From IMG/VR virus record IMGVR_UViG_2718218308_000001: a DNA stretch of 44,703 nt, one strand, 5' to 3'. The translations under genes were made by a program, and so were the position numbers. The stretch is from a virus. Its lineage: Duplodnaviria; Heunggongvirae; Uroviricota; Caudoviricetes. Below, in pieces: positions 1 through 37,066 of this stretch. Below the pieces are notes generated by a model that was not told where the DNA came from, searched no databases, and saw nothing but the letters and a program-made list of their open reading frames with translations. How positions within the stretch are numbered: the first letter of the stretch is position 1; each line of letters begins with the position of its first letter.

Positions 1-19
1 CTGTTTGATAAATATTAAA

Positions 20-1315
20 TTAATTTTTCATTGCTTCGTTATGGGGCATGGTTGGGGCAAACTCGCTTAACTGTGTATTTAACAAAGCTACCTGTGCATT
101 ATTGTTTTCAGACATCCATTTTCCGTATACCTGAAATACCATTTGCGCATCTGCATGGCCCATCTGGTTTGCTATAAATGCCGGGTTAGCACCAGCTGTC
201 AGCGACCAGCAGGCATAAGTATGTCTCGACTGATATGATTTTCGATGGCGGAGTCCGGCACGTTTTATCGCTGCGTCCCACATCTGCCTTATTGAGTCAA
301 CGGTAAAATGGTCACCATAATTTTTTACTCTCGCTGACACTTCAGGTTGAAAAACAAAGGTGCATTTTTGTTTTTCTGTTCTGCCATACTCTCTGAGGTG
401 AACATCAATGATATGCTCTTTGCTCAGTCTCGTTAATGTCATCTGACTCCGGAGAGCGTCGATTGCTGGCTTAATAAGATGAATGACCCGATTGGTTCCC
501 GCCTGTGTTTTTGGTACCGTGAAACGGTCTTTTGCTAAATTTCTCCTGATCATCATTGTTCCATTTTTCAGATCTATGTCCTCCCATCCAAGTGCACACA
601 GCTCACCAGGGCGAACGCCAGTATAAACAGAAACACACCATAAATTTTTGGCTTGCTGATTTCTGCACGCATCGATAAGACGGATGAATTCCTCCCGCGA
701 AAGAGGATCCGGAATGGTTCTTGATTCCTTTAATGGCGAGATCCCCTTAAACGGATTATCTGCCAGGTAACCGTTATCAACACCAAACTGGAACACGGCG
801 TTAAGATTTGTCATGTAATTATTTACAGTTACAGCCGATCTCCCTGGTTGTGTAACAATATAGTTACTTTTGGGGATCTGGTATCCAGTCAGTAGCTCTT
901 TACGAACCTCCAGTAATTTTTCTTTATTAATCGATGAGGCAAGATTTTTTTCACCGATTATGCTCAGGATATTTTTGATGACGGCACGGTATGTGTTGAG
1001 TGATGTTTTGGCGACTTCAGTTTCTTTCAGTGCCAGAAATTTTTCAGCCAGTTCTTTTATGGTTAAATCTTGTCGGGCCTCACCAAATTTTTCCAGATTG
1101 CGTGAGGAGGGAAACTGTTTTGCATAGTCGAAAACACCAGTTTTTATTGCGTAACAAACAGAGGAGCGTAGTTCACCTGCAACGCGCCTGTTTTTTGCTG
1201 TGTCAGGAACCCCCAGATTTTCCCTGACTCTTACGCCTTTATAAACAAACCAGATACGTAATTTCCCTCCATGGTTTTCCACGCCTGTCGGATATTTCAT
1301 TTCAACTTCTCTCAT
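20..1315 (-). CDS. Phage tyrosine integrase (site-specific recombinase)
   Basis: 431-aa ORF; C-terminal region (RHTYACW...GANPAFIANQMGH...VY) fits the tyrosine recombinase catalytic domain of IntR/IntS-type prophage integrases; sits at the prophage edge next to an excisionase-like gene. Family assignment from memory, not searched. Confidence 0.85.
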   Translation of the reverse strand: MREVEMKYPTGVENHGGKLRIWFVYKGVRVRENLGVPDTAKNRRVAGELRSSVCYAIKTGVFDYAKQFPSSRNLEKFGEARQDLTIKELAEKFLALKETEVAKTSLNTYRAVIKNILSIIGEKNLASSINKEKLLEVRKELLTGYQIPKSNYIVTQPGRSAVTVNNYMTNLNAVFQFGVDNGYLADNPFKGISPLKESRTIPDPLSREEFIRLIDACRNQQAKNLWCVSVYTGVRPGELCALGWEDIDLKNGTMMIRRNLAKDRFTVPKTQAGTNRVIHLIKPAIDALRSQMTLTRLSKEHIIDVHLREYGRTEKQKCTFVFQPEVSARVKNYGDHFTVDSIRQMWDAAIKRAGLRHRKSYQSRHTYACWSLTAGANPAFIANQMGHADAQMVFQVYGKWMSENNNAQVALLNTQLSEFAPTMPHNEAMKN

Positions 1316-1334
1316 TAGTTAGTGTGGCTTTTAG

Positions 1335-1586
1335 TCAAGTAAGATGACGTCTTGGTCTCGCTGATGCCTGGCGCTCAATCCAGCGATCAATTTCTTCCAG
1401 GTTGTAAAAGCATGGACTGTTATCCCATGGCATACCGTCATGAGCGACATGCTTATATTCCCTTCCTTCCATAAACGATTTTTCCCGGGCCTTTTTTAAC
1501 GTACCTTTTTTTATTCCTTTCAGCGCAATTAACTGCTCTTCGGATACCCATTTGCCGGGAGAGACAATCATGATTACTTCGCTCAT
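1335..1586 (-). CDS. Excisionase-like small DNA-binding protein
   Basis: 83-aa ORF directly upstream of and co-oriented with the integrase, the typical xis position. Called by position and size only. Confidence 0.55.
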   Translation of the reverse strand: MSEVIMIVSPGKWVSEEQLIALKGIKKGTLKKAREKSFMEGREYKHVAHDGMPWDNSPCFYNLEEIDRWIERQASARPRRHLT

Positions 1587-1658
1587 CGATTTCTTTATCT
1601 CTTACATCAGACGAGCGCCGGTTGCAGAATACCAGTCACAACCGGCGACAGTTGAACA

Positions 1659-3113
1659 TTAAGAATCAGCCTGACTCGGGATCAGTTTTTGCCAGATAAC
1701 TGAAACGTATTTTGCCTGGTAACGGGCGTCATCAAGTGCATTATGGCGCTCACCTTCGAATGGAATAGCCGTTCTGGCATCGAAGTCTATGGCTTTCCCC
1801 AGCTCAACGATTGTGCGTACATCGCGATCGTTGTAGTAACGCCACGGGCAGGGGATCCCCTGCCGTTCGTATGAACGGCGCAAAATCGTGTTGTCGAAGT
1901 TGGCTCCATTTCCCCAAACCTGAACAAAAAATTCACCGGAGTTTTCGTCGATAAATTCCCGTAATTGTAACAGTGCATCATCTAACGGGATTTCATCGGT
2001 CATAATGGCAGATTGCGCTTCGCGTGATTGCTTAAGCCACCATTTAATGGTGTCCCGATCAATGACTCCGCCAGCAGTTTCCAGATCGATAGTCTTACTA
2101 AATTCCGGTCCCATATCTCCGGTTTGCGGATCGAAAAATATTGCACCTATTGAGATGATCGGGGCATCAGGATTTTTTCCCATGGTTTCAAGGTCGATCA
2201 TTAGATGGTCACACGTCCTGCTGGTGGATGTGATTTCGTGATGACCGTTCACCTTAATTGAGTGATCTGCCGTCTCGCCAGTTTCATTATCGCTATTGTG
2301 ATGCTGATTGCCGCCAGTGTTCTCCTTGTGTGGATGTTCAGCGCCTTCCATTTCCTCCGGATCATCTTCCTGAACTTCAACCTGATACTCTTCATCGAAT
2401 GTTTCTTGGTATGTTGCGTCGCCCATCACCGCGCCACAATCAGGGCAGTTGCCGCCGCCGGTCTGACCGCAGGCGGTGCAGACTTTTTCCACTTCCTGTT
2501 GCGCCACTGGTTCAGGCTGTTTCGTTTCTGGCTCGTTTTGTAACGCATTTGTGCTGTTTTGTTCCGCTTTTTGGTAGTTCCGTTCCGATTCATGCTGGTT
2601 CTGGTTCACAGAATCGCGGGTCTGGATCCCCTTAACCCATTTCGGATCATTCGGGTCACTAATCCCTTCAACAAATTCACCACGTGATGCAGCAAGCAAC
2701 TTATCGGCGTCAGGCTGGCTGATATTGGCTGCCTGCATAATTTTGTTTACTTCGTCAGCGGTAACTTTTATCGGCTCTGGTTGTTCTGAATCTTCAGCGG
2801 TATCTACATTTTGCGGTAAGCCCGTGTATGTGCCATTTTTTCGGGCAAAATATTCTTCTTTTGTGATTTCAGTGGCGCCAGCAGCCAGTGCCTTATCCAG
2901 ACCAGAAAGTTTGTTTGCGCGACCGTATTTTTCTCCGTCCTTATCTGCGAAGAGGAAATAGAACGGCCCCTCACGCTCTACAGATGGTTCAGCTTCCGGC
3001 GCGGTTTCATTTTTTGGGATATCAGATACCTCAGTTTCCACTGCATCAGTTTGTGTTTCTGATGACTGGAGAACATCAACAGTGCCCAGGTCTGTTTCTT
3101 CATTCTCAAACAC
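1659..3113 (-). CDS. Putative phage exonuclease with C-terminal DEDD-type 3'-5' exonuclease domain; possibly 5'-truncated
   Basis: 484-aa ORF. C-terminal half has DnaQ-like motifs (MIDLETMG ... FDxxxL ... HNALDDA); N-terminal half is acidic and low-complexity with a CxxC...CxxC cluster. The ORF start lies 60 bp from the IS3 left end. Confidence 0.55.
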
Positions 3114-3238
3114 GCCCTTTGTCGTCAGGTATTCGCAGATATATTTGTTCAGTGCTATGGGATCTTTGTGAATTGATCTTACCCAGCAATAGTGGACACG
3201 CGGCTAAGTGAGTAAACTCTCAGTCAGAGGTGACTCAC

Positions 3239-3538
3239 ATGACAAAAACAGTATCAACCAGTAAAAAACCCCGTAAACAGCATTCGCCTGAATTTCGCAG
3301 TGAAGCCCTGAAGCTTGCTGAACGCATCGGTGTTACTGCCGCAGCCCGTGAACTCAGCCTGTATGAATCACAACTCTACAACTGGCGCAGTAAACAGCAA
3401 AATCAGCAGACGTCTTCTGAACGTGAACTGGAGATGTCTACCGAGATTGCACGTCTCAAACGCCAGCTGGCAGAACGGGATGAAGAGCTGGCTATCCTCC
3501 AAAAGGCCGCGACATACTTCGCGAAGCGCCTGAAATGA
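3239..3538 (+). CDS. insE: IS3 transposase OrfA (InsE)
   Basis: 99-aa product [32 protein letters not shown]... with helix-turn-helix region; overlaps orfB as in IS3-family elements. Confidence 0.9.
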
Positions 3539-4401
3539 AGTATGTCTTTATTGAAAAACATCAGGCTGAGTTCAGCATCAAAGCAATGTGCCGCGTGCTC
3601 CGGGTGGCCCGCAGCGGCTGGTATACGTGGTGTCAGCGGCGGACAAGGATAAGCACGCGTCAGCAGTTCCGCCAACACTGCGACAGCGTTGTCCTCGCGG
3701 CTTTTACCCGGTCAAAACAGCGTTACGGTGCCCCACGCCTGACGGATGAACTGCGTGCTCAGGGTTACCCCTTTAACGTAAAAACCGTGGCGGCAAGCCT
3801 GCGCCGTCAGGGACTGAGGGCAAAGGCCTCCCGGAAGTTCAGCCCGGTCAGCTACCGCGCACACGGCCTGCCTGTGTCAGAAAATCTGTTGGAGCAGGAT
3901 TTTTACGCCAGTGGCCCGAACCAGAAGTGGGCAGGAGACATCACGTACTTACGTACAGATGAAGGCTGGCTGTATCTGGCAGTGGTCATTGACCTGTGGT
4001 CACGTGCCGTTATTGGCTGGTCAATGTCGCCACGCATGACGGCGCAACTGGCCTGCGATGCCCTGCAGATGGCGCTGTGGCGGCGTAAGAGGCCCCGGAA
4101 CGTTATCGTTCACACGGACCGTGGAGGCCAGTACTGTTCAGCAGATTATCAGGCGCAACTGAAGCGGCATAATCTGCGTGGAAGTATGAGCGCAAAAGGT
4201 TGCTGCTACGATAATGCCTGCGTGGAAAGCTTCTTTCATTCGCTGAAAGTGGAATGTATCCATGGAGAACACTTTATCAGCCGGGAAATAATGCGGGCAA
4301 CGGTGTTTAATTATATCGAATGTGATTACAATCGGTGGCGGCGGCACAGTTGGTGTGGCGGCCTCAGTCCGGAACAATTTGAAAACAAGAACCTCGCTTA
4401 G
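3535..4401 (+). CDS. insF: IS3 transposase OrfB (InsF), DDE integrase-like catalytic domain
   Basis: 288-aa ORF overlapping orfA in another frame; contains DDE-type residues (WAGDITY...HTDRGGQY...[10 protein letters not shown]). Confidence 0.9.
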
Positions 4402-4431
4402 GCCTGTGTCCATATTACGTGGGTAGGATCA

Positions 4432-4686
4432 CGTGGAAGTATGAGCGCAAAAGGTTGCTGCTACGATAATGCCTGCGTGGAAAGCTTCTTTCATTCGCTG
4501 AAAGTGGAATGTATCCATGGAGAACACTTTATCAGCCGGGAAATAATGCGGGCAACGGTGTTTAATTATATCGAATGTGATTACAATCGGTGGCGGCGGC
4601 ACAGTTGGTGTGGCGGCCTCAGTCCGGAACAATTTGAAAACAAGAACCTCGCTTAGGCCTGTGTCCATATTACGTGGGTAGGATCA
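4432..4686 (+). mobile_element. Partial IS3: tandem duplicate of the 3'-terminal 255 bp
   Basis: 4432..4686 repeats 4177..4431 (the insF 3' end plus right terminal repeat) immediately after the complete element. ORFs 4441..4656 (+) and 4429..4668 (-) are artefacts of this duplication. Confidence 0.85.
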
Positions 4687-4846
4687 CACCTCATGCCCCA
4701 GATGTTTTTTGTTTTCAGGAGAAAACTATATCGCAGAACTACGAACTAAACTTATGTCATAACTCATGCAAAAAACTCTTCGGCTAAACATTAAAAAAAT
4801 CTTATAATGCGAATCATATTTTGTTACATGTTCAGGAGCGCAAAGG

Positions 4847-5887
4847 ATGTCCCAGTACGACAAAGCCACGCAAACAGCAGGTTTAGTACGCATAACTAAT
4901 CAATTAGAGTCTATATACGGAACTTTTATTGATATGAAAGATATTAATTCCGTAGGAGAGCATAGGAAAGAAACTCTAATTACACGCTGTGTAGCTGCGC
5001 ATGCAATCAGCTTGTATGGTGATGAACCAGACCCTGAGTTAGCTGCTAATGCTGTCTGCGATGGAAAAGATGATGGCGGGATAGATGCAGTTTATGTTAA
5101 TAAAAATTCGAGAAAGATAGTAATAGTTCAGTCAAAATATATTAAAAATGGCGACGGTTCTATAACCACAAGAGAATTCGGAAGATTCAAAGACGCATGC
5201 GCAAAAGTAATAGCCAGCGACTTTACAACATTTAACGAAAGGTTTTTAAGAAACAAAGACTCCATAATTGAAGCAATCTCAGGATTTACATATAAATGTA
5301 TATGTGTATTTATATATACAGGGGTTCATGAGCCAAGCGAAGAAGTAAAATCAGACATAGAGTTTTGGGAAAAGGTTCAGAATCGGTCTCTATTATTTAA
5401 AGATATAGAGAATAGAGATGAGTATTCAGTGCTATTCGAGCCGGCAGGTATACAAGTGATAATGGATGGTCTTTCTAATGATCGATCAAAATCTATAAAT
5501 GTTAGCAATGTTCACCTTGAAAGTTATGGAGAGATAGCAGAACCTTATAAAGCAATATACGGAACAATATCCGCAAGGATCCTATACGACTGGTGGGAAA
5601 AGTACAAGTACTCTCTGTTCGAGAAAAATATAAGAAGTGTCCTCGGTAATTCATCCATAAACTCTGGGATAAAGAAAACATTAAGTGAAAAGCCGGAGAA
5701 TTTTTGGTACTATAACAATGGGATAACTGCTGTATATAGTGATGTAGAAGAAAGCATGATCAACTTAAGTACAAGCAGGAAGTACGGGCTATTTAGTTTT
5801 AAAAGTCTGAGTATAATAAATGGAGCTCAAACTGTAAGCACTATTGGTGAAGTGTTCAACTCTTTACCCGAAGAAATAAAGATCTAA
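4847..5887 (+). CDS. Candidate abortive-infection/defence protein, N-terminal part (PD-(D/E)xK nuclease-like motif; AIPR-like)
   Basis: 346-aa ORF in an AT-rich island. Motif GIDAVYVN...KIVIVQSKY fits a PD-(D/E)xK D...(E/Q)xK signature; a later NGAQT motif resembles AIPR-family Abi proteins as I recall them. Shine-Dalgarno-like AGGAG upstream. Family assignment unverified. Confidence 0.5.
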   Translation: MSQYDKATQTAGLVRITNQLESIYGTFIDMKDINSVGEHRKETLITRCVAAHAISLYGDEPDPELAANAVCDGKDDGGIDAVYVNKNSRKIVIVQSKYIKNGDGSITTREFGRFKDACAKVIASDFTTFNERFLRNKDSIIEAISGFTYKCICVFIYTGVHEPSEEVKSDIEFWEKVQNRSLLFKDIENRDEYSVLFEPAGIQVIMDGLSNDRSKSINVSNVHLESYGEIAEPYKAIYGTISARILYDWWEKYKYSLFEKNIRSVLGNSSINSGIKKTLSEKPENFWYYNNGITAVYSDVEESMINLSTSRKYGLFSFKSLSIINGAQTVSTIGEVFNSLPEEIKI

Positions 5888-5892
5888 TCAAG

Positions 5893-6621
5893 GTGAGCAT
5901 TAGATTTATCAGTGCAGCAAAAGAAGATTTTTTAACCTCTGTCACTAAATTCAACAATACACAAAACAGGGTTACTGGAAGAGATTTCTCATCACAGAGG
6001 CCCGAGCAACAAAGAATACAAAGAGAAATAAACTTTATTGGCGGATATAGCTACAAACTACTCAGGCAAGAAGACTCCAGCCAGACAGGTGGTAATACCA
6101 TTGATATTGATGATGCTTTAAACGCATTAGTGTGTGCCTCTAAAGATGAAACATTGATATCTTCCTTAAAACTAAATAGAGGACGTTTTTTTGAAAGCTG
6201 GGGAGGTCTTTATGAAAAAGTATTCCCAGCTGAAAATGGTCCTACCGGTTTAGATATAATAAATAAAGTAAATGCTTATAGATTAGCAAATGATATATTG
6301 CAAGAAAGTATAGTTAAACTACTATCAGTAGATATGGAAAATCAGAAGCAGATTCATCAAATAATGATTCATGGAAATTATGTTTTAATATCCATACTCA
6401 TGAATAAAATAGAAGTTTCCTCTGTGGAGAATCACATCTTCTCTTATAGCCGAAACGTTTCACTGGAGGAATGTATAGAGCTGGCTTCTGATACTTATAA
6501 TCACATACAGGAAGTCTTCCCCAATAGTTATATAGCAAGATTCTTCCAGAACAGAGAAAAAGTATTAAATATTATTAATCATCTACTAGGTAAAGAGCAG
6601 ATCATCGAATTGCAAGAGTAA
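5893..6621 (+). CDS. Second ORF of the candidate defence locus (C-terminal part of a frameshifted gene, or a separate partner gene)
   Basis: 242-aa ORF with GTG start 5 nt after the upstream stop, in a different frame; that frame is open from 5851, so one indel in 5851..5887 would fuse the two ORFs into about 590 aa. Followed by a strong terminator. Confidence 0.45.
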   Translation: MSIRFISAAKEDFLTSVTKFNNTQNRVTGRDFSSQRPEQQRIQREINFIGGYSYKLLRQEDSSQTGGNTIDIDDALNALVCASKDETLISSLKLNRGRFFESWGGLYEKVFPAENGPTGLDIINKVNAYRLANDILQESIVKLLSVDMENQKQIHQIMIHGNYVLISILMNKIEVSSVENHIFSYSRNVSLEECIELASDTYNHIQEVFPNSYIARFFQNREKVLNIINHLLGKEQIIELQE

Positions 6622-13076: not shown

Positions 13077-13271
13077 ATGACTCAAGACTATGAACTGGTT
13101 GTGAAAGGAGTCCGTAATTTTGAGAATAAAGTTACGGTAACTGTAGCCTTACAGGACAAAGAACGCTTTGACGGTGAAATTTTTGACCTGGATGTCGCCA
13201 TGGACCGTGTTGAAGGAGCTGCGCTGGAGTTTTATGAGGCAGCAGCCAGAAGGAGCGTCCGGCAAGTCTGA
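13077..13271 (+). pseudogene. ydfR: ydfR-like lysis-cassette gene interrupted by IS3
   Basis: 64-aa ORF whose stop codon TGA is formed by the first bases of IS3; the same frame resumes after the IS for a further 38 codons (14527..14643), restoring an ORF of about 102 aa. Confidence 0.7.
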
Positions 13272-13333
13272 TCTTACCCAGCAATAGTGGACACGCGGCT
13301 AAGTGAGTAAACTCTCAGTCAGAGGTGACTCAC

Positions 13334-13633
13334 ATGACAAAAACAGTATCAACCAGTAAAAAACCCCGTAAACAGCATTCGCCTGAATTTCGCAGTGAAG
13401 CCCTGAAGCTTGCTGAACGCATCGGTGTTACTGCCGCAGCCCGTGAACTCAGCCTGTATGAATCACAACTCTACAACTGGCGCAGTAAACAGCAAAATCA
13501 GCAGACGTCTTCTGAACGTGAACTGGAGATGTCTACCGAGATTGCACGTCTCAAACGCCAGCTGGCAGAACGGGATGAAGAGCTGGCTATCCTCCAAAAG
13601 GCCGCGACATACTTCGCGAAGCGCCTGAAATGA
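13334..13633 (+). CDS. insE: IS3 transposase OrfA (InsE), copy 2
   Basis: Same protein as copy 1. Confidence 0.9.
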
Positions 13634-14496
13634 AGTATGTCTTTATTGAAAAACATCAGGCTGAGTTCAGCATCAAAGCAATGTGCCGCGTGCTCCGGGT
13701 GGCCCGCAGCGGCTGGTATACGTGGTGTCAGCGGCGGACAAGGATAAGCACGCGTCAGCAGTTCCGCCAACACTGCGACAGCGTTGTCCTCGCGGCTTTT
13801 ACCCGGTCAAAACAGCGTTACGGTGCCCCACGCCTGACGGATGAACTGCGTGCTCAGGGTTACCCCTTTAACGTAAAAACCGTGGCGGCAAGCCTGCGCC
13901 GTCAGGGACTGAGGGCAAAGGCCTCCCGGAAGTTCAGCCCGGTCAGCTACCGCGCACACGGCCTGCCTGTGTCAGAAAATCTGTTGGAGCAGGATTTTTA
14001 CGCCAGTGGCCCGAACCAGAAGTGGGCAGGAGACATCACGTACTTACGTACAGATGAAGGCTGGCTGTATCTGGCAGTGGTCATTGACCTGTGGTCACGT
14101 GCCGTTATTGGCTGGTCAATGTCGCCACGCATGACGGCGCAACTGGCCTGCGATGCCCTGCAGATGGCGCTGTGGCGGCGTAAGAGGCCCCGGAACGTTA
14201 TCGTTCACACGGACCGTGGAGGCCAGTACTGTTCAGCAGATTATCAGGCGCAACTGAAGCGGCATAATCTGCGTGGAAGTATGAGCGCAAAAGGTTGCTG
14301 CTACGATAATGCCTGCGTGGAAAGCTTCTTTCATTCGCTGAAAGTGGAATGTATCCATGGAGAACACTTTATCAGCCGGGAAATAATGCGGGCAACGGTG
14401 TTTAATTATATCGAATGTGATTACAATCGGTGGCGGCGGCACAGTTGGTGTGGCGGCCTCAGTCCGGAACAATTTGAAAACAAGAACCTCGCTTAG
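13630..14496 (+). CDS. insF: IS3 transposase OrfB (InsF), copy 2
   Basis: Same protein as copy 1. Confidence 0.9.
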
Positions 14497-14645
14497 GCCT
14501 GTGTCCATATTACGTGGGTAGGATCAGTCTTCCTGGAAGTAGCAGAAAAATTGTCAGAAAAAGTTGAGTCTTATCTGCAGCATCAGTACTCCTTTAAGAT
14601 TGAAAATCCTGCCAATAAGCACGAGCGTCCTCATCATAAATATAT

Positions 14646-17096: not shown

Positions 17097-17247
17097 TGTA
17101 TTCAATAATAAAATTTATCCATAAACCTCGTTTTTACGGGGTTTTGTTATATTTGAATGGTTCCGAATATCTAAATCACAATTGTTGATGGTTTTTATTA
17201 AACCAATGCAGTCCGGCTCAGGAGTGAGAGAAGCCGGACGTTATGGT

Positions 17248-17673
17248 TTAGCGTGGTAAGATCTGTGTAGTTTTCTGGATGCTTTCAGTAAATAGTAATG
17301 AATTATCAAAGGTATAGTAATATCTTTTTTGTTCGTGGATATTTGTAACCCACCGAAAAACTCCTGCTTTAGCAAGGTTTCTTCTGTATTCCTGAAATGT
17401 GATCTCTCTGGATTTCAGCTTATTAGAGGTCGTTTCTATAAGATGCCTATCCTTTGAAAATTTGACAGACACAATGTTTTTTAGGCCCTTTAATAACACT
17501 GTATTATCATTTTTTAATACAATATGAACATTCTCTGTGGCTAAATAGTAAATGTAATGTGAGACATTGTGACGTTTTAGCTCAGAATAAAACCATTGAT
17601 AGTTTAAATCGTTTCGAACTTTATCAAATATTTGTTTAAAAATGACTACCTGATCCATAGATAAACCTTCCAT
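17248..17673 (-). CDS. ydfO: DUF1398-family prophage protein (YdfO-like)
   Basis: 141-aa ORF on the minus strand in the Qin-like position between gnsB and ynfO. Called by synteny and size. Confidence 0.5.
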
Positions 17674-17715
17674 GTGATATGAGGGGGCGTAGTCTGCACG
17701 ATTATCTAAATTGCT

Positions 17716-17949
17716 TCAATCTGGTCTGACCTGATTTCTGAGCAATTCAGTAATGTCACTCTTTTCTTTGTTTGCTTCAGAAGAAACTCTTTTTTCTGAG
17801 CACAGTCTCCGGCGGCAGGCTTCAATGACCCAGGCTGAGAAATTCCCGGACCCTTTTTGCTCAAGAGCGATGTTAATTTGTTCAATCATTTGGTTAGGAA
17901 AGCGGATGTTGCGGGTTGTTGTTCTGCGGGTTCTGTTCTTCGTTGACAT
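17716..17949 (-). CDS. ynfO: Small putative DNA-binding protein (YnfO-like)
   Basis: 77-aa ORF with basic N-terminus, same size as Qin YnfO. Called by synteny. Confidence 0.5.
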   Translation of the reverse strand: MSTKNRTRRTTTRNIRFPNQMIEQINIALEQKGSGNFSAWVIEACRRRLCSEKRVSSEANKEKSDITELLRNQVRPD

Positions 17950-18148
17950 GAGGTTGTCCCGTATTCAGTGTCGCTGATTTGTATTGTCTGAAGTTGTTTT
18001 TACGTTAAGTTGATGCAGATCAATTAATACGATATCTGCGTCATAATTGATTATTTGACGTGGTTTGATGGCGTAGATGCACGTTGTGACATGCAGATGA
18101 TAATTATTATCATTTTGCGGGTCCTTTCCGGCGATCCGACAGGTTACG

Positions 18149-18337
18149 GGGCGGCGACCTCGCGGGTTTTCGCTATTTATGAAAATTTTCCGGTTTAAGG
18201 CATTTCCGTTCTTCTTCATCGTAACTTAATGTTTTTATTTAAAATACCCCCTGAAAAGAAAGGAAACGACAGGTGCTGAAAACGAGCTTTTGGGCCTCTG
18301 TCGTTTCCTTTCTCTGTTTTTGGCCGTGGAATGAACA
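18149..18337 (+). other. cos: Lambda-type cos site: cosN cohesive-end sequence GGGCGGCGACCT followed by the cosB terminase-binding region
   Basis: GGGCGGCGACCTCGCGGGTTTTCGCTATTTATGAAAATTTTCCGG... at 18149 onward closely matches the lambda cos region as I recall it, and lies directly upstream of Nu1. Confidence 0.8.
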
Positions 18338-18857
18338 ATGGAAGTCAACAAAAAGCAGCTGGCTGACATTTTCGGTGCGAGTATCCGTACCATTCAGAAC
18401 TGGCAGGAACAGGGAATGCCCGTTCTGCGAGGCGGTGGCAAGGGTAATGAGGTGCTTTATGACTCTGCCGCCGTTATAAGATGGTATGCCGAAAGGGATG
18501 CTGAAATTGAGAACGAAAAGCTGCGCCGGGAAGTTGAAGAACTGCGGCAGGCCAGCGAGACAGATCTCCAGCCAGGGACTATTGAGTACGAACGCCATCG
18601 ACTTACGCGTGCGCAGGCCGACGCACAGGAGCTGAAAAATGCCAGAGACTCCGCTGAAGTGGTGGAAACCGCATTCTGTACTTTCGTGCTGTCGCGGATC
18701 GCAGGTGAAATTGCCAGTATTCTCGACGGGATCCCCCTGTCGGTGCAGCGGCGTTTTCCGGAACTGGAAAACCGACATGTTGATTTCCTGAAACGGGATA
18801 TCATCAAAGCCATGAACAAAGCAGCCGCGCTGGATGAACTGATACCGGGGTTGCTGA

Positions 18858-18883
<26 letters not shown>
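18338..18883 (+). CDS. nu1: Terminase small subunit (lambda Nu1 homolog)
   Basis: 181-aa product MEVNKKQLADIFGASIRTIQNWQEQGMP... with winged helix-turn-helix; near identical to lambda gpNu1 from memory. Confidence 0.9.
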
Positions 18884-22564
<3,681 letters not shown>

Positions 22565-22584
<20 letters not shown>

Positions 22585-23884
22585 TCTCCCGCATATTGCC
22601 AGTATGGCCTTTAATGAGCCGCTGATGCTTGAACCCGCCTATGCGCGGGTTTTCTTTTGTGCGCTTGCAGGCCAGCTTGGGATCAGCCGCCTGACGGATG
22701 CGGTGTCCGGCGACAGCCTGACTGCCGGAGAGGCACCCGCGGCGCTGGCGTTATCCGTTGATGATGACGGACCACGACAGGCCCGCAGTTATCAGGTCAT
22801 GAACGGCATCGCCGTGCTGCCGGTGTCCGGCACGCTGGTCAGCCGGACGCGGGCGCTGCAGCCGTATTCGGGGATGACCGGTTACAACGGCATTATCGCC
22901 CGTCTGCAACAGGCTGCCAGCGATCCGATGGTGGACGGCATTCTGCTGGATATGGACACACCGGGCGGGATGGTGGCGGGAGCATTTGACTGTGCTGACA
23001 TCATCGCCCGTGTGCGAGACATAAAACCGGTATGGGCGCTGGCCAACGACATGAACTGCAGTGCAGGTCAGCTGCTTGCCAGCGCCGCCTCCCGGCGTCT
23101 GGTCACGCAGACCGCCCGGACAGGCTCCATCGGCGTCATGATGGCTCACAGTAATTACGGTGCTGCGCTGGAGAAACAGGGCGTGGAAATCACGCTGATT
23201 TACAGCGGCAGCCATAAGGTGGATGGCAACCCCTACAGCCATCTACCGGATGATGTCCGGGAAACATTGCAGTCCCGGATGGATGCAACCCGCCGGATGT
23301 TTGCACAGAAGGTGTCGGCATATACCGGCCTGTCCGTGCAGGCTGTGCTGGATACCGAGGCTGCAGTGTACAGCGGTCAGGAGGCCATTGATGCCGGACT
23401 GGCTGATGAACTTGTCAACAGCACCGATGCGATCACCGTTATGCGTGATGCACTGGATGCACGTAAATCCCGTCTCTCAGGAGGGCGAATGACCAAAGAG
23501 ACTCAATCAACAACTGTTTCAGCCACTGCTTCGCAGGCTGACGTTACTGGCGTGGTGCAAGCGACGGAGGGCGAGAACGCCAGCGCTGCGCAGCCGGACG
23601 TGAACGCGCAGATCACCGCAGCGGTTGCGGCAGAAAACAGTCGCATTATGGGGATCCTCAACTGTGAGGAGGCTCACGGACGCGAAGAACAGGCATGCGT
23701 GCTGGCCGAAACCCCCGGTATGACCGTGGAAACGGCCCGCCGTATTCTGGCCGCAGCACCACAGAGTGCACAGGCGCGCAGTGACACTGCGCTGGATCGT
23801 CTGATGCAGGGGGCACCGGCACCGCTGGCTGCAGGTAACCCGGCATCTGATGCCGTTAACGATTTGCTGAACACACCAGTGTAA
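22565..23884 (+). CDS. C: Head maturation protease C (S49 family) with nested in-frame scaffold Nu3
   Basis: GTG start at 22565 gives VTAELRNLPHIASMAFNEPLML..., matching lambda gpC; the C-terminal portion corresponds to Nu3 in the same frame. Confidence 0.9.
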
Positions 23885-23893
23885 GGGATGTTT

Positions 23894-24226
23894 ATGACGA
23901 GCAAAGAAACCTTTACCCATTACCAGCCGCTGGGCAACAGTGACCCGGCTCATACCGCAACCGCGCCCGGCGGGTTGAGTGCGAAAGCGCCTGCAATGAC
24001 CCCGCTGATGCTGGACACCTCCACCCGTAAGCTGGTTGCGTGGGATGGCACCACCGACGGTGCTGCCGTTGGCATTCTTGCAGTTGCTGCTGACCAGACC
24101 AGCACCACACTGACGTTCTACAAGTCCGGCACGTTCCGTTATGAGGATGTGCTCTGGCCGGAGGCTGCCAGCGACGAGACGAAAAAACGGACCGCGTTTG
24201 CCGGAACGGCAATCAGCATCGTTTAA
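23894..24226 (+). CDS. D: Head decoration protein D
   Basis: 110-aa product [27 protein letters not shown]... matches lambda gpD. Confidence 0.9.
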
Positions 24227-24281
24227 CCTGACCCTTCATCACTAAAGGCCGCCTGTGCGGCTTTTTTTACGGGATTTTTTT

Positions 24282-25307
24282 ATGTCGATGTACACAACCG
24301 CCCAGCTGCTGGCGGCAAATGAGCAGAAATTTAAGTTTGATCCGCTGTTTCTGCGTCTCTTTTTCCGTGAGAGCTATCCCTTCACCACGGAGAAAGTCTA
24401 TCTCTCACAAATTCCTGGACTGGTAAACATGGCGCTGTACGTTTCGCCAATTGTTTCCGGTGAGGTTATCCGTTCCCGTGGCGGCTCCACCTCTGAATTT
24501 ACGCCGGGTTATGTCAAGCCGAAGCATGAGGTGAATCCGCAGATGACCCTGCGTCGCCTGCCGGATGAAGATCCGCAGAATCTGGCGGACCCGGCTTACC
24601 GCCGCCGTCGCATCATCCTGCAGAACATGCGTGACGAAGAGCTGGCCATTGCTCAGGTCGAAGAGATGCAGGCAGTTTCTGCCGTGCTCAAGGGCAAATA
24701 CACCATGACCGGTGAAGCCTTCGATCCGGTTGAGGTGGATATGGGCCGCAGTGCGGCGAACAACATCACGCAGTCCGGCGGCACGGAGTGGAGCAAGCGT
24801 GACAAGTCCACGTATGACCCGACCGACGATATCGAAGCCTACGCGCTGAACGCTAGCGGCGTGGTGAATATCATCGTGTTTGATCCGAAAGGCTGGGCGC
24901 TGTTCCGTTCCTTCAAAGCCGTCAAGGAGAAGCTGGATACCCGTCGCGGCTCTAATTCCGAGCTGGAGACAGCGGTAAAAGACCTGGGCGAAGCGGTGTC
25001 CTATAAGGGGATGTATGGCGATACGGCGATCGTCGTGTATTCCGGACAGTACGTGGAAAACGACGTCAAAAAGAACTTCCTGCCGGACAACACGATGGTG
25101 CTGGGGAACACTCAGGCACGCGGTCTGCGCACCTATGGCTGCATTCAGGATGCGGACGCACAGCGCGAAGGTATTAACGCCTCTGCCCGCTACCCGAAAA
25201 ACAGGGTGACCACCGGCGATCCGGCGCGTGAGTTCACCATGATTCAGTCAGCACCGCTGATGCTGCTGGCTGATCCTGATGCGTTCGTGTCCGTACAACT
25301 GGCGTAA
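24282..25307 (+). CDS. E: Major capsid protein E
   Basis: 341-aa product starting MSMYTTAQLLAANEQKFKFDPLF..., matching lambda gpE. Confidence 0.95.
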   Translation: MSMYTTAQLLAANEQKFKFDPLFLRLFFRESYPFTTEKVYLSQIPGLVNMALYVSPIVSGEVIRSRGGSTSEFTPGYVKPKHEVNPQMTLRRLPDEDPQNLADPAYRRRRIILQNMRDEELAIAQVEEMQAVSAVLKGKYTMTGEAFDPVEVDMGRSAANNITQSGGTEWSKRDKSTYDPTDDIEAYALNASGVVNIIVFDPKGWALFRSFKAVKEKLDTRRGSNSELETAVKDLGEAVSYKGMYGDTAIVVYSGQYVENDVKKNFLPDNTMVLGNTQARGLRTYGCIQDADAQREGINASARYPKNRVTTGDPAREFTMIQSAPLMLLADPDAFVSVQLA

Positions 25308-25348
25308 TCATGGCCCTTCGGGGCCATTTTCTCTCTGTGGAGGAGTCC

Positions 25349-25744
25349 ATGACGAAAGATGAACTGATTGCCCGTCTTCAGGTGCTGGGTGAGCAACTGA
25401 ACCGTGATGTCAGCCTGACGGGGACGAAAGAAGAACTGGTGCTCCGTGTGGCAGAGCTGGAAGAGGAGCTTGATGACACGGATGACGCTGCCGGTCAGGA
25501 CACATCTGTCAGCCCGGAAAATGCGCTGACCGGACATGAAAATGAGGTGGTATCAGCGCAGCCGGATACCGTGATTGATACGGCTGCTCTGGTCACGGTC
25601 GTGGCACTGGTGACGCTGCATACTGATGCACTTCACGCCACGCGGGATGAGCCTGTGGCATTTGTGCTGCCGGGAACGGCGTTTCGTGTCTCTGCCGGTG
25701 TGGCAGCCGAAATGACAGAACATGGCCTGGCCAGAATGCAATAA
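25349..25744 (+). CDS. FI: DNA-packaging protein FI
   Basis: Product starting MTKDELIARLQVLGEQLNRDVSLTGTKEEL... matches lambda gpFI. Confidence 0.85.
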   Translation: MTKDELIARLQVLGEQLNRDVSLTGTKEELVLRVAELEEELDDTDDAAGQDTSVSPENALTGHENEVVSAQPDTVIDTAALVTVVALVTLHTDALHATRDEPVAFVLPGTAFRVSAGVAAEMTEHGLARMQ

Positions 25745-25755
25745 CGGGAGGCGCT

Positions 25756-26109
25756 GTGGCTGATTCCGATAACCTGTTCGATGCTGCCATTGCCCGCGCC
25801 GATGAAACGATACGCGGGTACATGGGAACGTCAGCCACCATGACATCCGGTGAGCTGTCCGGTGCTGTGATACGTGGTGTTTTTGATGACCCTGAAAATA
25901 TCAGCTATGCCGGACAGGGGGTGCGCGTTGAAGGCTCCAGCCCGTCCCTGTTTGTCCGGACTGATGATGTGCGGCAGCTGCGGCGTGGAGACACACTGAC
26001 CATCGGCGAGGAAAACTTCTGGGTGGACCGGATTTCGCCGGATGATGGCGGAAGCTGTCATCTCTGGCTTGGGCGTGGCGTGCCGCCTGCCGTTAACCGT
26101 CGCCGCTGA
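25756..26109 (+). CDS. FII: Head-tail connector protein FII
   Basis: 117-aa product MADSDNLFDAAIARADETIRGYMG... matches lambda gpFII. Confidence 0.9.
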   Translation: MADSDNLFDAAIARADETIRGYMGTSATMTSGELSGAVIRGVFDDPENISYAGQGVRVEGSSPSLFVRTDDVRQLRRGDTLTIGEENFWVDRISPDDGGSCHLWLGRGVPPAVNRRR

Positions 26110-26120
26110 AAGGGGGATGT

Positions 26121-26699
26121 ATGGCCATAAAAGGTCTTGAGCAGGCCGTTGAAAACCTCAGCCGTATCAGCAAAACGGCGGTGCCTGGTGCCGCCGCAAT
26201 GGCCATTAACCGCGTTGCGTCATCCGCGATATCGCAGTCTGCGTCACAGGTTGCCCGTGAGACAAAGGTACGCCGGAAACTGGTAAAGGAAAGGGCCAGG
26301 CTGAAAAGGGCCACGGTCAAAAATCCGCAGGCCAGAATCAGGGTTAACCGGGGGGATTTGCCCGTAATCAAGCTGGGTAACGCGCGGGTTGTCCTTTCCC
26401 GCCGCAGACGTCGTAAAAAGGGGCAGCGTTCATCCCTGAAAGGTGGCGGCAGCGTGCTTGTGGTGGGAAACCGTCGTATTCCCGGCGCGTTTATTCAGCA
26501 ACTGAAAAATGGCCGGTGGCATGTCATGCAGCGTGTGGCCGGGAAAAACCGTTACCCCATTGATGTGGTGAAAATCCCGATGGCGGTGCCGCTTACCACG
26601 GCGTTTAAACAGAATATTGAACGGATACGGCGTGAACGTCTTCCGAAAGAGCTGGGCTATGCGCTGCAGCATCAACTGAGAATGGTAATAAAGCGATGA
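26121..26699 (+). CDS. Z: Tail completion protein Z
   Basis: 192-aa ORF in the lambda gene order after FII. Confidence 0.9.
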   Translation: MAIKGLEQAVENLSRISKTAVPGAAAMAINRVASSAISQSASQVARETKVRRKLVKERARLKRATVKNPQARIRVNRGDLPVIKLGNARVVLSRRRRRKKGQRSSLKGGGSVLVVGNRRIPGAFIQQLKNGRWHVMQRVAGKNRYPIDVVKIPMAVPLTTAFKQNIERIRRERLPKELGYALQHQLRMVIKR

Positions 26700-27091
26700 A
26701 ACATACTGAACTCCGTGCAGCCGTACTGGATGCACTGGAGAAGCATGACACCGGGGCGACGCTTTTTGATGGTCGCCCCGCTGTTTTTGATGAGGCGGAT
26801 TTTCCGGCAATTGCCGTTTATCTCACCGGCGCTGAATACACGGGCGAAGAGCTGGACAGTGATACCTGGCAGGCGGAGCTGCATATTGAAGTTTTCCTGC
26901 CTGCTCAGGTGCCGGATTCAGAGCTGGATTCGTGGATGGAGTCCCGGATTTATCCGGTGATGAGCGATGTCCCGGCACTGTCAGATTTGATCACCAGTAT
27001 GGTGGCCAGTGGCTATGACTACCGGCGCGACGATGATGCGGGCCTGTGGAGTTCAGCCGATCTGACTTATGTCATTACCTATGAAATGTGA
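26696..27091 (+). CDS. U: Tail terminator protein U
   Basis: 131-aa ORF overlapping the Z stop; lambda gpU position and size. Confidence 0.9.
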
Positions 27092-27098
27092 GGACGAT

Positions 27099-27839
27099 AT
27101 GCCTGTACCAAATCCAGTAATGCCGGTGAAAGGGGCCGGGACCACACTGTGGGTTTATAAGGGGAACGGTGACCCTTATGCGAACCCGCTTTCAGACGTT
27201 GACTGGTCGCGTCTGGCTAAAGTTAAAGACCTGACGCCCGGCGAACTGACCGCTGAGTCCTATGACGACAGCTATCTCGATGATGAAGATGCGGACTGGA
27301 CTGCGACCGGGCAGGGGCAGAAATCTGCCGGAGATACCAGCTTCACGCTGGCGTGGATGCCCGGAGAGCAGGGGCAGCAGGCGCTGCTGGCGTGGTTTAA
27401 TGAAGGGGATACCCGTGCCTATAAAATCCGCTTCCCGAACGGCACGGTCGATGTGTTCCGCGGCTGGGTCAGCAGTATCGGTAAGGCGGTGACGGCGAAG
27501 GAAGTGATCACCCGCACGGTGAAAGTCACCAACGTGAGACGTCCGTCGATGGCAGAAGATCGCAGCACGGTAACAGCGGCAACCGGCATGACCGTGACGC
27601 CTGCCAGCACTTCGGTGGTGAAAGGGCAGAGCACCACGCTGACCGTGGCATTCCAGCCGGAAGGCGCAACCGACAAGAGCTTCCGTGCGGTGTCTGCGGA
27701 TAAAACAAAAGCCACCGTGTCGGTCAGTGGTATGACCATCACCGTGAAAGGTGTTGCTGCAGGCAAGGTCAACATTCCGGTTGTATCCGGTAATGGTGAA
27801 CTTGCTGTGGTTGCAGAAATCACCGTCACCGACAGTTAA
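27099..27839 (+). CDS. V: Major tail tube protein V (with C-terminal Ig-like domain)
   Basis: 246-aa product [22 protein letters not shown]... matches lambda gpV. Confidence 0.9.
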
Positions 27840-27854
27840 TCCGGAGAGTCAGCG

Positions 27855-28277
27855 ATGTTCCTGAAAACCGAATCATTTGAATATAACGGTGTGAGCGTCA
27901 CGCTTTCTGAACTGTCAGCCCTGCAGCGAATTGAGCATCTCGCCCTGCTGAAACGACAGGCAGAACAGGCGGGATCCAGTCTCAATCGACAGGTGAGCGT
28001 GGAAGATCTCGTCAGAACCGGTGCTTTTCTGGTGGCGATGTCCCTGTGGCATAGCCATCCGCAGAAGACAAAGATGCCGTCCATGAATGAAGCCGTTAAA
28101 CAAATTGAGCAGGAAGTGCTTACCACCTGGCCCACAGAGGCAATTGCTCAGGCTGAAAATGTGGTAATGCGTCTGTCCGGTATGTCTGAGTTTGTTGTGA
28201 ATGATGCACCTGAACAGGCAGATGACGCCGGGCCAGCAGAGCCTGTTTCTGCGGGAAAGTGTTCGACGGTGAGCTGA
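27855..28277 (+). CDS. G: Tail assembly chaperone G
   Basis: 140-aa ORF; lambda gpG position; slippery GGGAAAG near the 3' end. Confidence 0.9.
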   Translation: MFLKTESFEYNGVSVTLSELSALQRIEHLALLKRQAEQAGSSLNRQVSVEDLVRTGAFLVAMSLWHSHPQKTKMPSMNEAVKQIEQEVLTTWPTEAIAQAENVVMRLSGMSEFVVNDAPEQADDAGPAEPVSAGKCSTVS

Positions 28278-28693
28278 GTTTTGCCCTGAAACTGGCGCGT
28301 GAGATGGGGCGACCCGACTGGCGCGCCATGCTTGCCGGGATGTCATCCACGGAGTATGCCGACTGGCACCGCTTTTACAGTACCCATTATTTTCATGATG
28401 TTCTGCTGGATATGCACTTTTCCGGGCTGACGTACACCGTACTCAGCCTGTTTTTCAGCGATCCGGATATGCATCCGCTGGATTTCAGTCTGCTGAACCG
28501 GCGCGAGGCTGACGAAGAGCCTGAAGATGATGTGCTGATGCAGAAAGCGGCAGGGCTTGCCGGAGGCGTCCGCTTTGGCCCGGACGGGAATGAAGTTATC
28601 CCCGCTTCCCCGGATGTGGCGGACATGACGGAGGATGACGTAATGCTGATGACAGTATCAGAAGGGATCGCAGGAGGAGTCCGGTATGGCTGA
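28259..28693 (+). CDS. T: Tail assembly chaperone T (expressed as a G-T fusion by programmed -1 frameshift)
   Basis: ORF in the -1 frame overlapping the end of G; slippery heptamer GGGAAAG at about 28252..28258, as in lambda. Confidence 0.85.
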   Translation: MFDGELSFALKLAREMGRPDWRAMLAGMSSTEYADWHRFYSTHYFHDVLLDMHFSGLTYTVLSLFFSDPDMHPLDFSLLNRREADEEPEDDVLMQKAAGLAGGVRFGPDGNEVIPASPDVADMTEDDVMLMTVSEGIAGGVRYG

Positions 28694-31265
28694 ACCGGTA
28701 GGCGATCTGGTCGTTGATTTAAGTCTGGATGCGGCCAGATTTGACGAGCAGATGGCCAGAGTCAGGCGTCATTTTTCCGGTACGGAAACTGATGCGAAAA
28801 AAACAGCGGCAGTCGTTGAACAGTCGCTGAGCCGACAGGCGCTGGCTGCACAGAAAGCGGGGATTTCCGTCGGGCAGTATAAAGCCGCCATGCGTATGCT
28901 GCCTGCACAGTTCACCGACGTGGCCACGCAGCTTGCAGGCGGGCAAAGTCCGTGGCTGATCCTGCTGCAACAGGGTGGTCAGGTTAAGGACTCCTTCGGC
29001 GGGATGATCCCCATGTTCAGGGGGCTTGCCGGTGCGATCACCCTGCCGATGGTGGGGGCCACCTCGCTGGCGGTGGCGACCGGTGCGCTGGCGTATGCCT
29101 GGTATCAGGGCAACTCAACCCTGTCCGATTTCAACAAAACGCTGGTCCTTTCCGGCAATCAGGCGGGACTGACGGCAGATCGTATTCTGGCCCTGTCCAG
29201 AGCCGGGCAGGCGGCAGGGCTGACGTTTAACCAGACCAGCGAGTCACTGACGGCGCTGGTGAATGCCGGTGTGCGTGGTGGTGAGCAGTTTGAGGCGATC
29301 AGCCAGAGTGTGGCGCGTTTCTCCTCTGCATCCGGCGTGGAGGTGGACAAGGTCGCTGAAGCCTTCGGGAAGCTGACCACAGACCCGACGTCGGGACTGA
29401 CAGCGATGGCACGTCAGTTCCATAACGTGACGGCGGAGCAGATTGCGTATGTTGCTCAGTTGCAGCGTTCCGGAGATGAAGCCGGGGCATTGCAGGCGGC
29501 GAACGAGGCCGCAACGAAAGGGTTTGATGACCAGACCCGCCGCCTGAAAGAGAACATGGGCACGCTGGAGACCTGGGCAGACAGGACAGCACGGGCATTC
29601 AAATCCATGTGGGATTCGGTGCTGGATATTGGTCGCCCGGACACTGCCCAGGGAATGCTGGAGAAAGCAGAAAAGGCTTTTGATGAGGCGGACAAAAAAT
29701 GGCAGTGGTATCAGAGCCGAAGCCACCGGCGCGGTAAAACCTCAGCATTTCTTGCCAATCTCCGGGGAGCATGGGAGGACAGAGCGAATGCGCAACTTGG
29801 GCTTTCAGCCGCCACGTTGCAGGCCGATCTTGAAAAGGCCAGAGAGATGGCAGCAAAGGACTGGGCCGAGTCTGAGGCATCACGGCTGAAATATACCGAA
29901 GAGGCGCAGAAGGCTTACGAACGCCTGCAGACGCCGCTGGAGAAATATACCGCCCGTCAGGAAGAACTGAACAAGGCACTGAAAGACGGGAAAATCCTGC
30001 AGGCAGATTACAACACGCTGATGGCGGCGGCGAAAAAGGATTATGAAGCGACGCTGAAAAAGCCGAAACAGTCCGGCGTGAAAGTGTCTGCGGGCGATCG
30101 TCAGGAAGACAGTGCTCATGCTGCCCTGCTGACGCTTCAGGCTGAACTCCGGACGCTGGAGAAGCATGCCGGAGCAAATGAGAAAATCAGCCAGCAGCGC
30201 CGGGATTTGTGGAAGGCGGAGAGTCAGTTCGCGGTACTGGAGGAGGCGGCGCAACGTCGCCAGCTGTCCGCACAGGAGAAATCCCTGCTGGCGCATAAAG
30301 ATGAGACGCTGGAGTACAAACGCCAGCTGGCTGCACTTGGCGACAAGGTTACGTATCAGGAGCGCCTGAACGCGCTGGCGCAGCAGGCGGATAAGTTCGC
30401 ACAGCAACAACGGGCAAAACGGGCAGCCATTGAGGCGAAAAACCGGGGGCTTACTGACCGGCAGGCAGCGCGGGAAGCCACAGAACAGCGCCTGAAGGAA
30501 CAGTATGGCGATAATTCGCTGGCGCTGAATAACGTCATGTCAGAGCAGAAAAAGACCTGGGCGGCTGAAGACCAGCTTCGCGGGAGCTGGATGGCAGGCC
30601 TCAGGTCCGGCTGGAGTGAGTGGGAAGAGAGCGCCACGGACAGTATGTCGCAGGTTAAAAGTGCAGCCACGCAGACCTTTGATGGTATTGCGCAGAATAT
30701 GGCGGCGATGCTGACCGGCAGTGAGCAGAACTGGCGCAGCTTCACCCGTTCCGTGCTGTCCATGATGACAGAAATTCTGCTTAAGCAGGCAATGGTGGGG
30801 ATTGTCGGGAGTATCGGTAGCGCCATTGGCGGGGCTGTTGGTGGCGGCGCATCCGCATCAGGCGGTACAGCCATTCAGGCCGCTGCGGCGAAATTCCATT
30901 TTGCAACCGGAGGATTTACGGGAACCGGCGGCAAATATGAGCCAGCGGGGATTGTTCACCGTGGTGAATTTGTCTTCACGAAGGAGGCAACCAGCCGAAT
31001 TGGTGTTGGCAACCTGTACCGCCTGATGCGGGGCTATGCGGAAGGTGGTTATGTGGGCGGTGCCGGAAGTCCGGCGCAGATGCGGCGGGCTGAAGGCATT
31101 AATTTTAATCAGAACAATCACGTGGTGATTCAGAACGACGGTACGAATGGTCTGCCAGGTCCACAGATGATGAAGGCAGTGTATGACATGGCCCGCAAGG
31201 GTGCCCGTGATGAAATTCAGGCACAGATGCGCGATGGTGGTCTGTTCTCCGGAGGTGGACGATGA
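28686..31265 (+). CDS. H: Tail tape-measure protein H
   Basis: 859-aa largely helical ORF in the lambda gpH position. Confidence 0.9.
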   Translation: MAEPVGDLVVDLSLDAARFDEQMARVRRHFSGTETDAKKTAAVVEQSLSRQALAAQKAGISVGQYKAAMRMLPAQFTDVATQLAGGQSPWLILLQQGGQVKDSFGGMIPMFRGLAGAITLPMVGATSLAVATGALAYAWYQGNSTLSDFNKTLVLSGNQAGLTADRILALSRAGQAAGLTFNQTSESLTALVNAGVRGGEQFEAISQSVARFSSASGVEVDKVAEAFGKLTTDPTSGLTAMARQFHNVTAEQIAYVAQLQRSGDEAGALQAANEAATKGFDDQTRRLKENMGTLETWADRTARAFKSMWDSVLDIGRPDTAQGMLEKAEKAFDEADKKWQWYQSRSHRRGKTSAFLANLRGAWEDRANAQLGLSAATLQADLEKAREMAAKDWAESEASRLKYTEEAQKAYERLQTPLEKYTARQEELNKALKDGKILQADYNTLMAAAKKDYEATLKKPKQSGVKVSAGDRQEDSAHAALLTLQAELRTLEKHAGANEKISQQRRDLWKAESQFAVLEEAAQRRQLSAQEKSLLAHKDETLEYKRQLAALGDKVTYQERLNALAQQADKFAQQQRAKRAAIEAKNRGLTDRQAAREATEQRLKEQYGDNSLALNNVMSEQKKTWAAEDQLRGSWMAGLRSGWSEWEESATDSMSQVKSAATQTFDGIAQNMAAMLTGSEQNWRSFTRSVLSMMTEILLKQAMVGIVGSIGSAIGGAVGGGASASGGTAIQAAAAKFHFATGGFTGTGGKYEPAGIVHRGEFVFTKEATSRIGVGNLYRLMRGYAEGGYVGGAGSPAQMRRAEGINFNQNNHVVIQNDGTNGLPGPQMMKAVYDMARKGARDEIQAQMRDGGLFSGGGR

Positions 31266-31591
31266 AGACCTTCCGCTGGAAAGTGAAACCCGGTATGGAT
31301 GTGGCTTCGGCCCCTTCCGTCAGGAAAGTGCGCTTTGGTGATGGCTATTCCCAGCGAGCGCCTGCCGGGCTGAATGCCGACCTGAAAACGTACAGCGTGA
31401 CGTTTTCTGTTCCCCGTTGGGAGGCCACGGCGCTGGAGTCGTTTCTGGCTGAGCACGGGGGCTGGAAAGCCTTTCTGTGGACGCCGCCTTATGAGTGGCG
31501 GCAGATAAAGGTGACCTGCGCAAAATGGTCGTCGCGGGTCAGTATGCTGCGTGTTGAGTTCAGCGCAGAGTTTGAACAGGTGGTGAACTGA
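31262..31591 (+). CDS. M: Tail tip protein M
   Basis: 109-aa ORF, lambda gpM position and size. Confidence 0.9.
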   Translation: MKTFRWKVKPGMDVASAPSVRKVRFGDGYSQRAPAGLNADLKTYSVTFSVPRWEATALESFLAEHGGWKAFLWTPPYEWRQIKVTCAKWSSRVSMLRVEFSAEFEQVVN

Positions 31592-32289: not shown

Positions 32290-32294
32290 ATCCC

Positions 32295-33607: not shown

Positions 33608-33664
33608 TGCAAAATGTTTTATGTGAAACCGCCTGCGGGCGGTTTTGTCGTTTATGGAGCGTGA

Positions 33665-37066
<3,402 letters not shown>

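Follow-up and report, generated by a model that had tools for sequence, protein, structure and literature searches.

A probable scar of IS3 activity at the breakpoint of an early-region deletion in a Qin-type lambdoid prophage

In the Qin-type lambdoid prophage recorded as IMGVR_UViG_2718218308_000001 (44,703 nucleotides; the whole of this stretch is referred to below as the window), a complete IS3 element is followed immediately by a second copy of that element's own last 255 base pairs, and this composite occupies the position at which related prophages carry an early region. The arrangement is probably a real scar of IS3 activity, involving at least two IS3 copies and an IS3-mediated deletion of the early region. 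The composite displays three exact joints at IS ends (the exonuclease gene to the left end of the element, its right end to nucleotide 1004 of IS3, and a right end to a flanking CAC), it lacks a target duplication, and its ends match those of a gap of 5589-5591 bp relative to uninterrupted prophages; from these observations we infer a route of formation. The composite is read as a private and recent IS3 scar that marks the IS-mediated loss of the early region, with some residual chance that its 255-bp stump reflects an error of assembly.

The integrase end of the window corresponds to the end that adjoins rspB in related prophages, and the features of the window that bear on the composite are as follows.

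20..1315, minus strand: integrase, intact, on the attachment-site side (open reading frame list; tyrosine recombinase annotation in the aligned region of loci L002, L003 and L028)
1335..1586, minus strand: excisionase, intact (open reading frame list; annotation of relatives)
1659..3173, minus strand: 3' part of the prophage exonuclease gene, 505 codons of an 823-aa protein (translation of the open reading frame; alignment)
3171..3173, no strand: left flank AAT, the left deletion breakpoint (prophage TUM9757 runs on here as ...GAAT/GTCGATCGG)
3174..4431, plus strand: complete IS3 (copy 1), 1258 bp, identical at 1258/1258 positions to K-12 IS3C and to copy 2
4431..4432, no strand: inner junction, without a spacer, joining the terminal A of the right inverted repeat (IS3 nt 1258) to IS3 nt 1004 (CGT...)
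4432..4686, plus strand: putative remnant of a second IS3, nt 1004..1258, exactly identical to 4177..4431
4687..4846, no strand: right flank beginning with CAC, the right deletion breakpoint; last 160 bp of the DUF977-AIPR intergenic region (window 4687 = position 10001 of L002)
4847..6621, plus strand: AIPR-family gene, as two open reading frames of 346 and 242 aa; the first gene kept to the right of the deletion
13269..14526, plus strand: IS3 copy 2, which interrupts ydfR (DUF1327) as a simple insertion flanked on both sides by the GTC duplication

Rightward of the composite, the AIPR-family gene is followed by hokD, rem, ydfU, the Q antiterminator gene, the genes for lysis and a complete complement of head and tail genes. 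The division of the AIPR-family gene into two reading frames reflects a frameshift in an A-run near position 5877, where the A8 of TUM9757 is replaced by AAATAAA in the window. An identical split is found in the prophage VTB96935v and in more than 20 other contigs, all of which retain the early region, and the frameshift therefore predates the deletion. The late region of the window (from terminase to the tail genes, about 17100..40290) is also present in LT883142.1 and other sequences at 99.2% identity and is absent from the Qin remnant of VTB96935v, the relatives having decayed at different places. Within the tail-gene region lies a 107-nt direct repeat (39172..39278 and 39304..39410), the two units of which are 77% identical and 132 nt apart.

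Copy 1 displays the properties expected of an IS3 element, including a length of 1258 bp, imperfect terminal inverted repeats of about 39 bp that run 5'-TG...CA-3', and two overlapping frames, orfA (3239..3538) and orfB (3535..4401), both of which are open in translation. In its OrfB product 35 residues separate the D of an HTD motif from the E of a VES motif, corresponding to a DD(35)E triad, and an identical copy of the element in locus L001 is annotated as a transposase with a programmed frameshift. Its flanks, in contrast, are not those of a simple insertion: the AAT on the left is repeated neither by the CGT that follows the element directly (4432..4434, which is itself IS3 nt 1004..1006) nor by the CAC that lies beyond the additional 255 bp (4687..4689), and no 3-bp duplication can be drawn from either pairing.

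The 255-bp repeat was recovered by reading of the sequence, by a repeat finder, by string comparison and by Tandem Repeats Finder, the last of which reported positions 4177..4687 with a period of 255, 2.0 copies, 100% matches and 0 indels; string comparison extended the repeat by 0 nt to the left and by 1 nt (C) to the right. An exact tandem repeat of this kind cannot be the product of chance. The first-pass annotation had described positions 4432..4686 as an exact repeat of 4177..4431 that leaves two right ends in tandem, which these four comparisons confirm, and had read the segment as a tandem duplicate of the element's own tail. That reading has been refined: because the joint coincides precisely with the last nucleotide of the right inverted repeat, the 255 bp are better regarded as the remnant of a second IS3 copy that was struck by an IS3 right end. 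The remnant encodes residues 215-288 of OrfB, among them the E of the DD(35)E triad, and its right inverted repeat is complete; a 71-aa open reading frame lies within it (4441..4656), the product of which carries Pfam rve_3/rve_2.

The inner junction reads GGGTAGGATCA/CGTGGAAGTATG (its right side is also given as CGTGGAAGTATGAG), and there are two natural sources for a joint of this type: transposase-mediated strand transfer from the right end of one IS3 into a second IS3, or an untrimmed join between assembly contigs whose ends fall at repeat borders. The structure is not that of a tandem dimer of the form (IS)2, in that the second copy is without nt 1-1003 and the right end of the first meets nt 1004 with no 2-4 bp spacer, nor is it that of a nested insertion, in that only nt 1004..1258 of the second copy are present and no IS3 nt 1..1006 is found to the left of position 3174. 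Direct comparison of the three IS3 segments in the window, made in search of polymorphisms that would reveal their parentage, found none (100% identity).

Comparison with two uninterrupted relatives, TUM9757 and VTB96935v, established the relationship of the composite to the missing DNA. In TUM9757 (L002), window positions 1..3173 correspond to 1237..4409 and the window from 4687 onward is matched from position 10001, leaving 5591 bp unmatched; in VTB96935v (L028), the closest relative found, which matches the 8.6 kb rightward of the composite at 99.72% identity without gaps, the corresponding figure is 5589 bp. In both comparisons the outer limits of the composite fall, to the base, on the two edges of the gap. 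The left breakpoint lies within the exonuclease gene, the N-terminal 319 codons of which have been severed by the IS3 left end such that translation begins at residue 320 (IHKDP...) of the full-length TUM9757 protein, and the right breakpoint lies 160 bp upstream of the AIPR-family gene. The genes contained in the gap comprise, in addition to those first 319 exonuclease codons, ydfD, dicB, small genes resembling ydfA/B/C, cI-like and cro-like regulators, a ydaT-family gene, a replication gene and a DUF977 gene. This DNA was sought in the rest of the window and is absent from it. Intact IS ends thus abut sequences that are distant from one another in relatives, and the intervening DNA is gone, as is observed for IS-associated adjacent deletions. 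Two earlier proposals, that the locus records a deletion or rearrangement mediated by an IS and not a simple insertion, and that the composite marks the breakpoint at which the early region was lost, are both borne out, in that the flanks lie 5589-5591 bp apart in relatives and window positions 3173 and 4687 are the two gap ends in TUM9757 and VTB96935v.

The second IS3 copy in the same window serves as an internal control. Copy 2 is bounded on both sides by a 3-bp GTC duplication, and the corresponding site in VTB96935v is empty and contiguous, with a single GTC. The missing duplication at copy 1, which had been pointed out in the first-pass annotation (AAT versus CAC or CGT) and is borne out here, is meaningful because the other copy in the window possesses a normal 3-bp duplication and an empty counterpart. 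The truncated 64-aa ydfR product created by copy 2 (window 13077..14526; loci L029-L035) is also encoded on 17 other contigs, several of which represent a different prophage backbone (with a 250-aa antiterminator and two cold-shock genes), which indicates that the IS3-ydfR junction is older and has spread or been recombined between prophages.

The possibility of an assembly artefact, raised from the outset, still applies to the inner junction; the right outer junction, on the other hand, is represented in independent reads. The corresponding rival reading holds that the 255-bp duplicate is an overlap left untrimmed during assembly, and that a single real IS3 lies between the exonuclease stump and the leader of the AIPR-family gene, with the deletion itself being real. 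We regard this as rather unlikely, while noting that several observations speak for it. Many draft assemblies contain contigs that start within IS3, about 248 nt from its right end, so that ends of this sort are common; the duplicate is 100% identical; and an untrimmed join produces the same exact joint between an IS end and an internal IS position as does a transposase. When the 71-aa OrfB fragment was looked up, most of the hits lay at contig edges in draft assemblies, a result informative only about assembly breaks in IS3. Many unrelated E. coli draft contigs (L010-L017) begin exactly at IS3 nt 1011, which corresponds to 248 nt of right end, although a look-up of the exact 71-aa product itself selects for contigs that start at that nucleotide.

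The inner junction was furthermore found in no other sequence searched. Queries of 56 nt (28 nt on either side of each joint), used with an E-value cut-off that shuts out half-matches, returned no match for any of the three junctions among 5426 complete E. coli genomes, in searches that did report matches of 34-37 nt and would thus have revealed a complete one; the inner junction was likewise absent from plasmids and phages, and neither it nor the right junction turned up in exact-pattern scans of GTDB representative genomes, IMG/VR and JGI metagenomes. A k=31 Logan unitig across the inner junction would be only 60 nt in length, which is too short for look-up. For the left junction, protein look-ups with the truncated exonuclease as 484, 513 or 514 aa returned no contig that contains it.

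Against the same reading, an untrimmed overlap should have duplicated the left end of copy 1 and the ends of copy 2 as well, and neither the repeat finder nor string comparison detected a matching duplicate at any of those three ends. In addition, the window resolves two identical 1258-bp repeats and displays 0 indels over 8.6 kb, which suggests that it was assembled from long or finished reads, for which joins of this type are unusual. Independent read support is confined to the right outer junction, and is provided by a Logan short-read unitig (L005, SRR29504238) that encodes the same 346-aa AIPR fragment and opens with 29 nt from the right end of IS3, continuing as CACCTCATG; since the unitig spans that joint, the right junction exists in independent reads. 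The start of this unitig at 29 nt rather than 30 nt inside the IS3 end implies that its genome contains a further IS3 right end, one that continues with C and, next, a base other than A. An inner junction, at which the right inverted repeat is followed by CG, would supply that second right end and hints faintly at its reality, as an IS3 copy elsewhere could do the same.

A more far-reaching error, in which separate simple insertions in the exonuclease gene and upstream of the AIPR-family gene, with the early region still between them, were collapsed during assembly into a single join, is improbable. Two direct IS3 copies 5.6 kb apart would form a classic substrate for collapse, and no contig with the left junction was found by the protein look-ups. 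The expected product of such a collapse, however, is one clean IS3 rather than an IS3 with a 255-bp stump, the early region is found nowhere else in the window, and the remaining assembly is of high quality. The two separate insertions would be expected to display the precursor junctions GGGTAGGATCA/AATGTCGATCGG and GGAGCTCAC/TGATCTTACCC. Finally, a tandem duplication independent of transposase, by replication slippage or unequal sister exchange, with the 255 bp ending at the IS3 terminus by chance, was rejected as scarcely credible: although tandem duplications with little homology do occur, and the right flank shares 1 nt (C) with the beginning of the repeated unit, the coincidence to within 1 nt of the right boundary with the terminal nucleotide of IS3 would be very unlikely at random, that single nucleotide is the only homology (which, together with the boundary, indicates a transposase rather than slippage), and the missing target duplication and the 5.6-kb gap would both be left unexplained.

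With regard to the origin of the composite as a product of IS3 activity, the 255-bp segment would be what remains of a resident IS3 that had occupied the CAC site between DUF977 and AIPR. Transposase would have linked the right end of a different IS3 to nt 1004 within the resident one, and the surviving full copy would have become attached to the exonuclease gene through its left end, with the accompanying loss of the 5.6 kb of early region between the two sites and of nt 1-1003 of the resident copy. The presence of two IS3 copies in one early region is not far-fetched, given that IS3 is found at other sites in the Qin-type prophages of other E. coli, including the replication gene (VG12A2) and the interval between hokD and rem (23CRST012, PK13); the positions recorded for IS3 in such loci are 7998..9255 in L001, 7445..8702 in L003, 14638..15895 in L004 and about 2837 in L021. 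Prophages of the Qin type appear to be a recurrent target of IS3.

Several routes could lead to this outcome. In the route that we favour, (i) two IS3 copies would have been present in direct orientation, at the exonuclease site and at the CAC site; (ii) the right end of the left copy would have been joined to the left end of the right copy, forming a tandem dimer and deleting the intervening 5.6 kb; (iii) the very reactive end-to-end junction so created would have attacked the nearest DNA, that is, the second copy, at nt 1004-1006; and (iv) nt 1-1006 would have been excised, destroying the junction and leaving a stable product. Alternatively, a newly inserting IS3 could have generated a deletion in the same event, its right end coming to lie within the resident copy; or an IS3 could have inserted into another IS3 at nt 1004-1006 (with CGT as the duplication), followed either by an adjacent deletion or, in a variant of that route, by homologous recombination with a third IS3 in the exonuclease gene. 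The second and third of these routes fit the sequence equally as well as the first, and the data do not rank them, because all of the IS3 segments are identical and because no precursor was found in any database searched, including the 5426 complete E. coli genomes, none of which contained either outer junction. The preference for the dimer route is based on mechanistic economy, since the IS itself is what lies nearest to a dimer junction, and since a stable product results. It is suggested only tentatively, as a possibility of lesser likelihood than its opposite, that the composite is what a chromosomal (IS3)2 tandem dimer, having deleted the early region, left behind in nature on decaying to a stable form. 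If that were the case, the locus would represent a rare field record of the IS3 dimer pathway, and a 1513-bp derivative of IS3 with two usable right ends.

For the prophage, the consequences of the deletion are considerable. The integrase, excisionase and late genes are retained, while the repressor/cro pair, the replication gene, dicB and ydfD have been lost and the exonuclease has been beheaded, which implies that the prophage is no longer inducible or able to replicate. Together with copy 2 in ydfR, the composite indicates a prophage that is being dismantled by IS3, and it adds one more documented case to those of insertion sequences eroding prophages. For annotation of the locus, its recognition explains the absence of the immunity, replication and dicB region, shows that the prophage is locked in, and flags a site at which an intact IS3 and a spare right end are able to drive further rearrangement. 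In the composite the intact IS3 is accompanied, 255 bp farther out, by a second right end of identical sequence, and this outer right end and the left end could in principle pair to move a unit of 1513 bp; no sign of such movement was detected, and the inner junction is unique among the collections searched. If it is real, that junction also constitutes a tidy natural example of the integration of an IS3 end into another IS3 copy.

Deletions adjacent to IS3 have been described, according to passages in PMC11708052 and PMC8860574 that cite Sekine, Eisaki and Ohtsubo 1994, and of 83 IS events recorded in the long-term evolution experiment, 14 consisted of movements of IS150, a member of the IS3 family, that were accompanied by deletions of 14 bp to 49 kb (PMC11708052). 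The composite resembles the adjacent deletions of this family in possessing an intact IS, the ends of which abut sequences that lie kilobases apart in relatives, with no duplication and with loss of the DNA between. It differs from them in that they leave a single IS, whereas here a 255-bp remnant of the right end of a second copy is attached. It is an ordinary footprint of IS-driven prophage decay, a well-known kind of event, and not a new kind of element.

Tandem dimers with an active end-to-end junction have been reported for IS911, IS2, IS21 and IS256, and tandem duplications of IS3 itself were reportedly described by Spielmann-Ryser in 1991. The dimer route has been documented stepwise for IS30, a copy-out-paste-in element with the same chemistry as IS3, for which end-to-end junctions were found to form between distant copies, and for which decay deletions start at the edge of the inverted repeat (PMC9333248). 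The composite is similar to such dimers and their decay products in that the right inverted repeat is the reactive element and in that the product may consist of an intact copy joined to a truncated one; the junction that defines a dimer (a right end, a 2-4 bp spacer and a left end) is absent, however, and the composite could correspond only to a product of its decay.

The copy of IS3 that resides in the K-12 cryptic prophage DLP12 (IS3C; L036, NC_000913.3, 566777..568034) is the same element (1258/1258), likewise within a defective lambdoid prophage of E. coli; its flanks, ...ATC and ACC..., give no perfect 3-bp duplication as annotated. It was considered as an analogue in which IS3 had replaced the interval from exo to ren, and was dropped, as its annotation shows renD simply interrupted, both parts of the gene being present, and no deletion breakpoint is marked by it. 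E. coli K-12 also carries IS30B, a remnant composed of the last 184 bp of IS30 (PMC9333248). IS30B is comparable to the stump in the window in being a short right-end fragment with an intact inverted repeat, located in the chromosome near a full copy, and unlike it in not being abutted to the right end of that copy. Solo IS ends such as IS30B are the nearest described relics to the structure reported here.
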